From contig OX597829.1 in the NCBI GenBank assembly GCA_951406725.2, forward strand, positions 5,642,001 through 5,706,000: 64,000 nucleotides of DNA, given 5' to 3'. The DNA comes from Octopus vulgaris. Lineage: Eukaryota. A program made the position numbers and the translations under genes. The notes beneath the pieces were generated by a model, which was not told the origin of the DNA, searched no databases, and saw only the letters and a list, made by a program, of their open reading frames with translations. Each line of letters opens with the position of its first letter. Position 1 is the first letter of the stretch. Shown one piece after another: positions 30,560 to 40,051 of this stretch.

Positions 30560-33500
30560 AGTGATGGTGTCACAATCAAAAGACTGGTTATTGCGCAACC
30601 TGATAATCGCTACCTCATATGAGTGACAACGAAAAAACAAAATATTGTGAATAACGGTGGTAACGAAGCTGAAGCCAATGATGGTGACAGTGTTACACTC
30701 GGTCGGCTCAGAGGTTCTGGTCCGGCTCCAGCCTGTCGATATCCAGAAATGGACCACCACAAACGGCGAAGATGGAGCAGGCAAATTAATGCTGTGGTCA
30801 TGGAGTGTTACTACACGAGCAGCCTGGTAGATGAAAATGGTGTTCAAATTAGGGGTTAATGTATGTATGACCATTGGAAAGAAAAGGGATAGTTTCAACA
30901 CACGGAACAAAGACTGTGTGATCAAGCTAGAGCAATAAGGAAAAATTGTTGGTTCACAGAAGTAGAGCTCGAAGTTATCAAAAGACGGGTCACGGAAAAT
31001 AGCAGCAGAGATAACAATGAAAATACAGTTCTTATTAATAAGAGTAATATCATAGCACAGGTAAGGAGCAGTGGTAGTTTACTTGATGAGATACATATAG
31101 ATGATCTAAAAGAAGACAATAAAACTAATGGCGACATGACAGATGAACAAAACGCAATCTACGACATAATAAAGTCAAGACTACAGGAGAACGATAGCGA
31201 CATTATTTGCAACCTTAAGAAGGTTGATCGATAGAAATTGAACCAAGAAAAGAAAAATGTCAATGAAATTCTGAAATACATCAGAAGAAAAAATATCACA
31301 GAAACAAATAATTTGATCAAGGCAGCTAGTATTGTTGTAGCAGAAAACATGAGAAACGTAATGGGAGTGACAAAAGAAAGGATCCATAGTGGAAAAGAAG
31401 AATCTAGGCAGGGTTAAACATGCTCTCGAAGGAAAACTCTGTGTTAGACCGAAAAGAGAAAGGGGAACTTAAAAGCGAAAAAAATACAGGGCACTGAAAA
31501 GGAAGTGTAATATAGAGAGAAAGGGCCTGAAAATAGTAGTGGAGGAACTGGAACAGCGCCTCGTTGCAAAGAACGCAAAGATGGTAAGATACGACTAAAG
31601 AATGAAGGGTTGCTACCAGAATAGGTTATTCAGAGTAGATCAGAAGAGTTTCTATAAAGAAATAAATGGAGGGTGTACAGATGAAAAGTTGATACCAGAT
31701 AACATTGAAAGTCAAAGGTTTTGGAGTGACATCTGGAGTAAAGACAAGGAGCACAAGAAGGATGCTGAATGGTTGCAAGAACTAAAACAAACAGTAGTCT
31801 GCCCCAAACAGACAGAACTAGGGAAGTGAAGGAAATCAGCAAAAAAAAAAAAAAAATTAGCAACTCGAAGGCCCCGGGACCAGATGGAGTTCAAGGCTAC
31901 TGGATCAAAGGATTTGGTGAATGTCATGCACGAATATCTGCGCAACTCAGCACCATGTTAAATTCCGACCAAGGAACACCAGAGTGGTTGACATTGGGTA
32001 GGACAATGCTGTGCCTGAAAAACATCTAAAAAGGCAAAACGGTAGATTATTACAGGCCGATATCCTGTTTGCCACTCATGTGGAAGTTATTGACTGGAAT
32101 ACTCACAGAGTTAATGTCCGAACATCTGGAAAAAAATGGAGTCCTGCCACATGAGCAGAAGGGTTGCAAGCGTAAGTGATAGACAAAACTGTACTTACAG
32201 ACTGCAGGAGGAGGAAAAGTAACTTAGCCATGTCATGGATGGACTATCGTAAAGCGTATGATATGATTCCACATTCTTGGATTATGGAGTGTATGAACCT
32301 ATTTGGTATTGCATCGAATGTTGAGCGATTGCTTGGAAAAAGTATGACGAATTGGAGGACGGATCTGACAGCATACGGAAGAAGTTTACGGACAGTAGAA
32401 ATTAGGAGGGGCATTTTCCAAGGGGTCTGCCTGTCCCCAATGTTCTTTGTACTCTGCTTGATACCACTAACTCTGATTCTGAGGAAAGCAAAAGCTGGGT
32501 ATGTTTTCAAAAGCCGCCAGCAAAAAGTCAACCATTTGTTATTCATGGATGACTTCAAACTTTATGGTAAAGATGAAGCCCAAGTCAGTTCTATCGTTGA
32601 TACGGTGTATACATTCAATGCTGAGTTCGGACTGAGAAAGTGTGGTGTGTTTGTCTTGAAGAGAGGCAAAATCAAAAGAAGCAGATAGAAGAAACGAGCT
32701 ATAAGTACTTGGGGATTTTGGAAATGGATAAATTGATGGAGAAAGAAATGACAGAACAAGTTAAGGTGGAGACAGAATAAGATCGAAGCTATCAACACCT
32801 GGGCTGTTTTACTCCTTAGATGTGGAGCAGGAGCAATCGCATGGACAGAAGACGAACTAAGCAGTTTAGACAGAAAGACAAGGAAGTTGCTAACTAGATA
32901 TGGAATACTCCATCCAAAAGGTGGCACAGATAGACTTTATGAACCAAGAAAAAGAGGGGGAAGTGGACTCATTGGATGCGAACACAGCATTCGAGCAGAA
33001 GAAAACAAAATAGCATAGTATGTAAAAACAAAATACCTCAGAACCGCTATTATTGGAAGGTCAGGTTTTTGTAAGCTGGAAGATTGCAAAGATAAAGCAC
33101 TGTACAAGAAATTGAAAACGAATGAAACTGAAAATAGGTGGGTAAAGAAAAGAATGCATGGACAATTTCATAGGGATGTTGAAGATAAGAGAGACAGAGA
33201 AAAAAGATGTCTGTGGATGACTAAAAGTGATTTAAAACCGGAAACGGAGGCTCTAATATGTGCTGCCCAAGAGCAAGCACTAAGAACAAACTACATAAAA
33301 TACAGAATAGACAACACATCAGAAAGTGATAAATGCAGAATCTGTGGACAAAATGGTGAAACCGTATGGCATATTACCAGCCAATGTACGCCAATAGACC
33401 AGAAGGAATATAAGAGAGGCCACGAAAATATAGCCAGGCTTGTCCATTGGACACTTTGCAACAAGTATGGACTTGACAGATCGAAAAATTGGTACGATCA

Positions 33501-33987
33501 CAAACCTGAAGGCATCGTCAAAAATATAAATACATAGATACTATGGGATTTTATTATTCAGGGCGACAATCACATAAAGAATAGAAAGCCGGGCATAGTC
33601 TTAATTGAGAAAGAAAACAAACTATATTGGATCATAGATATAGCATGCCCAACTGATAAAAAGGTATGTGATAAGGATGAAAGAAAAGTCGAGAGATATG
33701 ACAGGTTAGCTTGGGAGGTTAAGCAGTTGTGGTCGATAAAAAAGGTAGCAGTAGTACCAAAAATTGCTGGAGTCTTGGGAACAGTGAGCAAAAATATCGA
33801 GAAGTACGTGGAACAAACAGGAGCTGCGATAAGGTTGAAGCACCTGCAGAAAACAGCACTGCTTGGAACCCTACGAATACTCCGATGGTGCTCGAAAAAT
33901 AAGGGGTGTTACCTTAGTTCACTGGTAGTAAACAACTGACACTGTAGTACATCTCTAGCGTTAGAAGCTCTGCAAAGGCTATAAATG
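30560..33987 (+). mobile_element. Near full-length, disrupted R4/Dong-clade non-LTR retrotransposon (RT + CCHC + RLE)
   Basis: N-term RRRWSRQINAVVMECYY; RT motifs [45 protein letters not shown]; CRICGQNGETVWHITSQC; RKPGIVL..IIDIACP; ends in (TAA)n. Multiple stops and frameshifts; 5' boundary approximate. Confidence 0.9.
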
Positions 33988-38018: not shown

Positions 38019-38474
38019 GGTATATATATATATATATATATATAGCTAGCTTGCTGGAGAATACACACACACACGCACATACACGTGCACTTATATGTAA
38101 TGAATATTTTTCAGCGTGCTTATTTATGTATACATGTATATGTATATATGTGTATATGTATATATGTGTATACATGTATACGTGTATATGTGTATATGCA
38201 TGCACGTGTACGTAGTTGGGAGCAGTCGCAATTCCTTGGTCGCATGTTCAACTGCGTCCGCAGTTGTAAGAATTTTGGTATTGCCATTTGGATGTATGTT
38301 TCCCTTATTGTCATTGTTCTCTACGGTGTGGCCCAATATCTCAAGAATTTAGACGAAGGTGTGCAATAAGTGAACCTGGTCGCAGCTCTCCAGATATTTA
38401 CTCGCCTGTCTGCTTGCCTGCCTACCTACTCACCCCACTGTCTACCTACCTACCTGCTTCCTTGTCTTCCTGCC

Positions 38475-39330
38475 TGCCACCTACCTACCTACCTGCCTAC
38501 CTACCTACCTACCTACCTACCTACCTACCTACCTACCTACCTACATACCTACCTACCTACCTACCTACCTACCTACCTACCTACCTACCTACCTACCTAC
38601 CTACCTACCTACCTACCTACCTACCTACCTACCTACCTACCTACCTACCTACCTACCTACCTACCTACCTACCTACCTACCTACCTACCTGCCTACCTAC
38701 ATACCTACATACCTACCTACCTACCTACCTACATACCTACCTACCTACCTACCTACCTACCTACCTACCTACCTACCTACATACCTACATACCTACCTAC
38801 CTACCTACCTACCTACCTACCTACCTACCTACCTACCTACATACCTACCTACCTACCTGCCTACCTACCTACCTACCTACCTACCTACCTACCTACCTAC
38901 CTACCTACATACATACATACCTACCTACCTACCTACCTACCTACCTACCTACCTACCTACCTACCTACCTACATACCTACCTACCTACCTACCTACATAC
39001 CTACCTACCTACCTACCTACATACCTACCTACCTACCTACCTACCTACCTGCCTACATACCTACCTACCTACCTACCTACCTACCTACCTACCTACCTAC
39101 CTACCTACCTGCCTACCTACCTACCTACCTACCTACCTACCTACCTACCTACCAACCTACCTACCTACCTACCTACGATATGTTGTTGCTAAAGGTCTGT
39201 TGGTAAAGCAGCTTATCAACCTACCTACCTACCTACCTACCTACCTACCTACCTACCTACCTACCTACCTACCTACCTACCTACCTACCTACCTACCTAC
39301 CTACCTACCTACCTACCTACCTACCTACGA
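38475..39330. repeat. (CCTA)n microsatellite
   Basis: Direct reading. Confidence 0.95.
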
Positions 39331-39641: not shown

Positions 39642-39674
<33 letters not shown>

Positions 39675-39676
<2 letters not shown>

Positions 39677-39947
39677 CAATTGCAGCGTGGAAGGTGTTTA
39701 TAAGTCATTTAAGAAACACAGAAAAACCGTTAGATTCACGTCAACATTTAAATTCAATTTGTCAAAATATTTTCCTCGCTTTCAGACCGCGACCTGTTCA
39801 CTAACAAAGCTTCGTGGTTAGTGAAGAGGTCGCGGTCTGAAAGTGACGAAAATATTTTGACAAATTGAATTTAAATGTTGACGTGAATCTAACGGTTTTT
39901 CTGTGTTCCTTAAATGGCTTATAAACACCTTCCACGCTGCAATTGTT
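39675..39947. repeat. Fold-back inverted repeat, 131-bp arms, 11-nt spacer
   Basis: 39675-39805 pairs with 39817-39947 with few mismatches. Confidence 0.92.
39758..39808 (-). ncRNA. Minimal type-I hammerhead fold with G3:C8 core
   Basis: Minus strand TTTGTTA-GTGAACA-G-GTCGC GGTCTGAAA GCGAG-GAA-AATATT-T-TGACAAA; sister copy on + at 39817-39861. Confidence 0.65.
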
Positions 39948-40051
39948 TTCGTTCCAGCACACGATCTCAGATCAAGTCACTCGCTATGCAAGTACATCTC
40001 CGTAATATATATATGCATATATACATACACACACACACATACGCACGCACG

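Follow-up and report, generated by a model that had tools for sequence, protein, structure and literature searches.

A fold-back in Octopus vulgaris as a probable two-armed insertion of a Penelope-like element family with a reciprocal G3-C8 hammerhead core

The fold-back at positions 39675 to 39947 of the window, the 64,000-nucleotide stretch of Octopus vulgaris DNA analyzed here, can be assigned to a Penelope-like element (PLE) family whose members carry a type I hammerhead motif with G at core position 3 and C at position 8, the reciprocal of the C3-G8 pair in related families of the same genome. The best explanation of the locus, to which we give a probability of roughly 0.62, is a short two-armed PLE insertion from this family, in which the intact motif would likely be slow at best as a ribozyme and both arms of the window copy would likely be inactive.

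The two arms (39675-39805 and 39817-39947) are 131 nt each, are separated by an 11-nt gap and are 96% complementary, with 126 of the 131 bases pairing and 5 differences between them, which confirms the 131-bp fold-back noted in an initial sequence-only reading of the window. The left copy continues through the 11-nt "spacer" to its end at 39816, and the right copy continues for 59 nt beyond its arm as a tail (Table 1). This tail ends after MQVHLRN, and the window contains no ORF body. The insertion lies in a (TA)n target, with a TA-rich run also following the tail on the right side from about 40005; no target-site duplication was readable in the (TA)n and TA-rich flanks. A microsatellite of the (CCTA)n type, about 1 kb long, occupies 38335-39330, just upstream of the insertion.

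Table 1. Features of the fold-back and its immediate surroundings, in window positions
Feature	Position	Strand	Description
Left copy	39675..39816	-	3' part of the PLE end repeat (pLTR), without tail; 5' end 15 nt upstream of G3
Type I hammerhead motif, left arm	39758..39808	-	Core with G3-C8; stem I of 7 bp; stem II not closed, as G10.1 faces G11.1 (39775)
Predicted cut, left motif	after 39765	-	
Right copy	39817..39947	+	Same pLTR part as the left copy; 5' end 4 nt upstream of G3
Hammerhead motif, right arm	39817..39864	+	G3·G8 mismatch (39821, 39826), stem I cut to 4 bp
Predicted cut, right motif	after 39857	+	
PLE tail, one arm only	39948..40006	+	First codons of the element ORF, ATG at 39986, MQVHLRN
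Head-to-head junction of both truncated copies	39816..39817	.	Without evident microhomology
(TA)n target, left side	39645..39674	.	(TA)n sequence

Judged by its sequence, the fold-back is a member of a Penelope-like element family. Upstream of the arm, one locus contained a frame resembling GIY-YIG, whose match to the Pfam GIY-YIG family (E = 0.0043) did not reach the cut-off, and a genome search with this frame returned 150 scored matches. In all 20 of the long-ORF loci fetched, the arm lies about 1 kb after the stop of an ORF for reverse transcriptase (RT) and GIY-YIG on the same strand, and the pLTR carries the hammerhead motif, supplying the adjacent PLE ORF that the sequence-only reading had proposed to look for in longer copies. 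The arm is present within the 1.5-kb flank examined in 10 of the 20 best-hit loci. The longest frames, found in other copies and not in the window, comprise 839 and 1025 amino acids, with YVDD and YIGET..R..EH recognized by eye; a Pfam search with the 839-aa frame matched no family, and the protein database contained 136 homologues, of which the best named match was an RT-domain protein. In L086, where copies stand in tandem, the tail extends into the ORF. The family thus has the features of EN+ Penelope-like elements, namely, a single ORF with RT and C-terminal GIY-YIG, a pLTR in tandem or inverted copies with an optional tail, and a pLTR hammerhead. The Hydra clade, as defined by no CCHH in EN, a CxCx5C linker, RDD-type RT5 and a length under 3 kb, was rejected on the basis of a CCHH-like C-x4-C plus H-x4-H, a C-x3-C-x2-C linker, YVDD and a unit of about 4.3 kb. 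A CX2-5CxxC linker is present, as in the Nematis or Neptune clade, for which assignment would also need placement in an RT tree; the RT4 motif GGAIG gave 0 matches in the available part of the supplement of Craig et al. 2021 (PMC8557442). A non-LTR retrozyme was rejected as well, as the locus holds two inverted copies and no tandem array. A 366-aa frame that by eye resembles Hydra-clade PLE proteins (L031:5191-6291, minus strand) is nested in an insertion of the window family, referred to below as family A.

The hairpin layout is, by its arrangement, the ordinary inverted 5'-truncated insertion form already described for PLEs, and the fold-back as such is not new. In the available portions of the two papers, an inverted 5'-truncated PLE copy with a tail at one end only is described by Craig et al. 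2021 (PMC8557442), and the same inverted form with ORF codons in the tail is described by Arkhipova et al. 2013 (PMC3846280). As far as these texts extend, both share with the octopus copies the head-to-head pLTR copies, the one-sided tail, the ORF start codons in the tail and the (TA)n target, whereas the tail is about 59 nt here and 30-40 nt in the described inverted insertions; unlike those insertions, the octopus fold-back has two minimal arms and no ORF body, and short copies of its family favor a particular 5' start. Of the 51 inverted pairs counted across the fetched loci, a set enriched for fold-backs and ORF copies (as was the sample of 5' ends) in which a few pairings join nonpartner copies in crowded loci, the tail is on exactly one arm in 47, on both arms in 3 and on neither in 1. 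The arms of one pair differ by 3.2% on average, compared with 6.9% for random copies, and the two arms in the window share four rare variants and therefore had a common template or were later converted. In L115, L118 and L022, the two arms of one fold-back have different loop-II subfamily types, which could reflect two RNA templates or mosaic sources.

A read-through transcript of the window locus is predicted to form a 131-bp hairpin of -211.6 kcal/mol, which greatly exceeds the stability of the motif by itself (-8.6 and -7.6 kcal/mol, predicted), and short fold-backs are common: the first 100 of the 6,905 matches include 8 inverted pairs lying close together. Both observations are compatible with a selected regulatory unit in which read-through would bring ribozyme and antisense together in one duplex, so that the ribozyme is silenced or small-RNA pathways that act on the element are supplied. 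We regard such a unit as highly improbable: inverted partners occur at every length, from tens of bases to 5.6 kb between cores, and correspond to the described insertion product, both arms are damaged, and the locus is without the upstream start region. Of the earlier proposal for read-through RNA, the long hairpin stands as a prediction, whereas antisense self-silencing is without support beyond this geometry, and a designed ribozyme/antisense switch is not supported, the inverted partner being of the described PLE form and both arms breaking a conserved pair.

Rereading of both arms bore out the motif as first described. The left arm, on the minus strand, has the core GUGAACA with G3 at 39801 and C8 at 39796, followed by an extra G; its 7-bp stem I includes one U-G pair, a G replaces C11.1 of stem II at 39775, and GAA, the palindromic AAUAUU and U17 follow. 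The right arm reads GUGAAGA (39821-39827) with stem II closed (GUCGC/GUGAC), and its stem I has lost 3 nt from the start of the 5' strand. The ancestral core and stem II proposed earlier are identical to the majority letters of the aligned arms. The two arms do differ at positions 8 and 11.1, as had been claimed, but neither lesion is private: G8 occurs in 220 genomic matches and 23 of 138 aligned arms, and G11.1 occurs in 7 of 140. Because these differences recur, and do so in the same phase in locus L010, a picture of two private lesions is too simple. Both window arms break a conserved pair and are likely broken as ribozymes. Neither has the full three-stem architecture of a type I hammerhead, and an Rfam scan of the 64-kb window returned 0 matches at the gathering score. 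In intact family copies, the predicted fold contains stems I and II, with a stem III of 1-2 bp or a dimer helix, and a cofold of two intact copies pairs them through stem III.

The G3-C8 pair is the norm of the family. A genome-wide exact search (G000) with a 20-nt pattern open at positions 3 and 8 yielded 6,905 matches and 0 for the reversed pattern used as a control, so the motif is not a chance match. In the family it has three stems around the core in type I order, and the hammerhead reading is supported. The matches comprised 6,323 with G3-C8, 220 with G3·G8 and 0 with C3-G8. The sequence-only reading had predicted that G3 would be kept with C8 across copies, naming their separation beforehand as the outcome to count against it, and the two are kept together in 6,323 of the 6,905. 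The core departs from the canonical CUGAnGA in that these copies read GUGAACA, with a Watson-Crick pair kept at 3-8. Loop II differs from one subfamily to the next, but the rest of the core, the extra base and stems I-III stay the same, and among the 40 rows listed of 57 for contigs from four runs under four organism labels, no other core letter was seen and loop II varied. Four assembled contig sets of presumed RNA origin cover the repeat. Within the family, variation in the motif is not clearly below that of the flanks, and two structure-breaking variants are common. The G3·G8 copies occur on several loop-II backgrounds and are unevenly spread, with 95 of the 220 on contigs C1-C15, where most of the genome lies; contig C16 has many of the sequences that match the window arm best, also of several loop-II backgrounds. 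The copies may have been converted locally by one another or may stem from a source element nearby, and a general C>G excess was not found among the rare changes on contig C16.

Sister family B, found by protein search (54% protein identity), has a C3-G8 motif at the homologous place, and families B and C and a single copy designated D are all C3-G8 in the fetched loci. The D copy is the same as family A across the inner stem I, the core and the 5' strand of stem II except at positions 3 and 8. A second pattern, open at positions 3, 8 and 9, gave 12,055 matches (control, 8), the first 100 of which, sorted by eye, comprised 50 G-C, 47 C-G, 3 G·G and 0 C·C. Across 13 distinct sequences, 91.7% of cells pair, a score on which related sequences easily beat shuffles, and 5 of 12 pairs have changed on both sides, in each of stems I-III as well as at 3-8; families C and D and the old B copies were found with a pattern fixing part of stem II, so the conservation of stem II in this count is inflated. 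Since the homologous site of related families holds C3-G8 and their stem changes are compensated, G3-C8 is, as read from these families, a natural reciprocal swap, with real covariation that represents one evolutionary event in these data. It is likely the derived state, given C3-G8 in families B, C and D as well as in published PLE motifs. A looser pattern that required C11.1 and TG after the cut, leaving room for other families, revealed no second G3-C8 family among the first 100 of 8,298 matches (control, 59): 98 belonged to family A and the other 2 were without stem I. Family D gave 1 match only, and in the 6 fetched loci of family C no ORF match was found within 3 kb. Young copies of family B read CUGAUGC, with A9 changed to C, and older copies read CUGAUGA, indicating that active PLEs here tolerate core changes; this A9C change, with a bulged stem I, is why a strict descriptor missed family B. 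Many intact frames of 1310-1312 aa with an asparagine-rich insert were seen in family B (L076:1282-5217; L077-L082, L089 and L090), and the family shares 98.7% identity with a protein that the database lists under Octopus vulgaris.

By analogy with characterized ribozymes, the intact G3-C8 motif likely cuts slowly at best. Minimal PLE hammerheads are described as slow and in need of dimers in the available part of Cervera and de la Pena 2014 (PMC4209133). Single mutants at position 3 or 8 are dead and the double mutant is partly rescued (PMC11167929; also the review PMC8495972, in the part available), and the engineered C3G/G8C swap partly restored cleavage in a protein-dependent PLE ribozyme as well (Frangieh et al. 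2024, PMC11167929). The swap is the same here, engineered in that work (PMC11167929) and in the octopus natural, fixed in more than 6,000 copies and known from sequence. In the same study, PLE insertion in vitro did not need cleavage and uncut RNA was the main template. A footprint of cutting was sought in copies with a non-T before the predicted 3' product, sorted by eye, with a control 4 nt downstream. Of 102 such copies, 30 were read: 17 were truncated at or near the cut (3 of them with stem I microhomology), 11 were point mutants and 2 were ambiguous, compared with 2-4 of 30 truncated at the control position (316 matches). Over a wider span, the copy ends found by script were spread over columns 68-83, with 2 of 18 at the cut, and 100 rows sorted by eye had 8 ends at the cut versus 4-8 at several neighboring positions. 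The copies examined thus show at most a weak excess, and no sharp pile-up, of 5' ends at the predicted cut site. Two fold-backs, L149 and G000:C1:194164978-194165034, have both arms starting 0-2 nt from the predicted cut and could be copies of cleaved RNA.

It is conceivable that the motif is a dead relic, its core changes fixed by drift in a lineage not needing cleavage and their complementarity a matter of luck or only a folding aid. The dispensability of cleavage for insertion in vitro (PMC11167929), the genomic copies that pass through the cut site with no sharp peak there, the 220 G3·G8 copies on several loop-II backgrounds and the single swap event all fit that account. We nevertheless judge it rather unlikely, since among all possible changes the two core differences from the sister families are exactly reciprocal and, across the inner stem I, core and 5' stem II, are the only differences from the D copy, and since the remaining core letters, extra base and stems persist across loop-II subfamilies, with no other core letter among the 40 of 57 rows listed for the contigs of four organism labels.

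The 5' ends of short copies are not evenly distributed. Among 124 copies, 57 reach at least 60 nt upstream of G3; the other 67 start 19-23 nt upstream in 37 cases, 1-18 nt in 26 and 24-59 nt in 4. This wall is where 47 copies end; AGATG is the first sequence in 28 of them, and 20 of these 28 are preceded by an extra G at a site occupied by C or T in the element (P = 3e-7 versus 25%), although several of the extra Gs could belong to the partner arm. The arms in the window stop 8 and 19 nt short of the wall. A cap can be copied by RT into an additional G, and the spacing between TATA and initiator is a mark of a transcript start; TATATAT is found at -30 in 2 of 3 long copies checked. Taken from copy ends only, the wall suggests a transcript start. 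The concentration of short-copy ends 19-23 nt upstream of the core, in many cases behind an additional G, suggests that capped transcripts were copied uncut. The promoter type would then differ from that of D. virilis Penelope, which is internal and TATA-less in the part of the source available. The wall could instead be a splice acceptor, with short copies made from spliced RNA: the sequence upstream reads ACTAAC, a pyrimidine run and then CAG or TAG, and the pLTR intron of D. virilis Penelope ends at helix I, next to the hammerhead, in the available part of PMC4209133. We find this improbable, because AG is kept in 28 of the 47 copies stopping at the wall, the bases that precede the extra G vary (T9 A6 G3 C2), so that no shared upstream exon is seen, and TATATAT precedes the wall.

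Under the preferred reading of a short two-armed insertion, transcription of the element would begin about 23 nt upstream of G3, and its endonuclease would nick both strands of a (TA)n target. RT would begin at two internal sites bracketing the tail, as shown in vitro for the anole PLE (Frangieh et al. 2024, PMC11167929), and would copy back toward the capped 5' end through the uncut ribozyme, after which the two short cDNAs would be joined head to head. A transcript start at the wall combined with two internal RT start sites would therefore produce short two-armed insertions that pass through an uncut ribozyme. For cleavage, the ribozyme would depend either on a second copy, dimerized through the palindromic stem III, or on the protein of the element, and its rate would be reduced by the swap rather than abolished, as in the laboratory double mutants. 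A bolder version, which we advance tentatively and would sooner bet against, is that a retroelement lineage successful in several related species has a natural, active G3-C8 hammerhead as a fixed feature, one missed by CUGAnGA searches, and that the fold-backs are "strong-stop"-like products of capped uncut transcripts on both target strands. If so, thousands of short fold-backs would be a genomic readout of the PLE start site and would also show how little the ribozyme cuts before reverse transcription.

Compared with the minimal type I hammerheads that metazoan PLEs carry in the pLTR (Cervera and de la Pena 2014, PMC4209133, as far as the text is available), the octopus motif has the same end-repeat position and type I order, a single additional base separating 9 from 10.1 (after A9), G10.1-C11.1 and a short palindromic stem III, along with many truncated copies and opposite-strand pairs, 100-700 bp apart in that work. 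It differs in its core pair, G3-C8, the pair being C3-G8 with a U3-A8 variant in the available part of that paper and C3-G8 in all hammerheads of the accessible part of file S2 of Craig et al. 2021 (PMC8557442). The natural U3-A8 hammerheads in the portion available of Perreault et al. 2011 (PMC3088659) are likewise a natural 3-8 covariation, but they keep a pyrimidine at 3 and a purine at 8, an order that is reversed here. In the literature searched, whose incomplete coverage leaves room for an earlier description, G3-C8 was found only in engineered mutants, and the available parts of PMC6765202, PMC6155905, PMC10085705, PMC2920678 and bioRxiv 10.64898/2026.07.22.740005 hold nothing on it; it is an unusual core variant, probably little described. 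A natural purine-pyrimidine reversal of the 3-8 pair would widen the known range of hammerhead cores, and standard descriptors would miss whole families, such as the one here with more than 6,000 copies and no Rfam match. Related families in one genome offer C3-G8, G3-C8, G3·G8 and A9C cores in near-identical frames, and this ready comparison makes the role of PLE hammerheads directly testable.

Other mobile elements are also represented in the window. Fragments of another, non-LTR retroelement, some in tandem, occur at 6244-9319, 27872-28516 and 32176-33537, with motifs of RT and a DREIKANRPDIV-type endonuclease, and a fragment at 741-1196 resembles, by eye, the C-terminus of a Tc1/mariner-type transposase.
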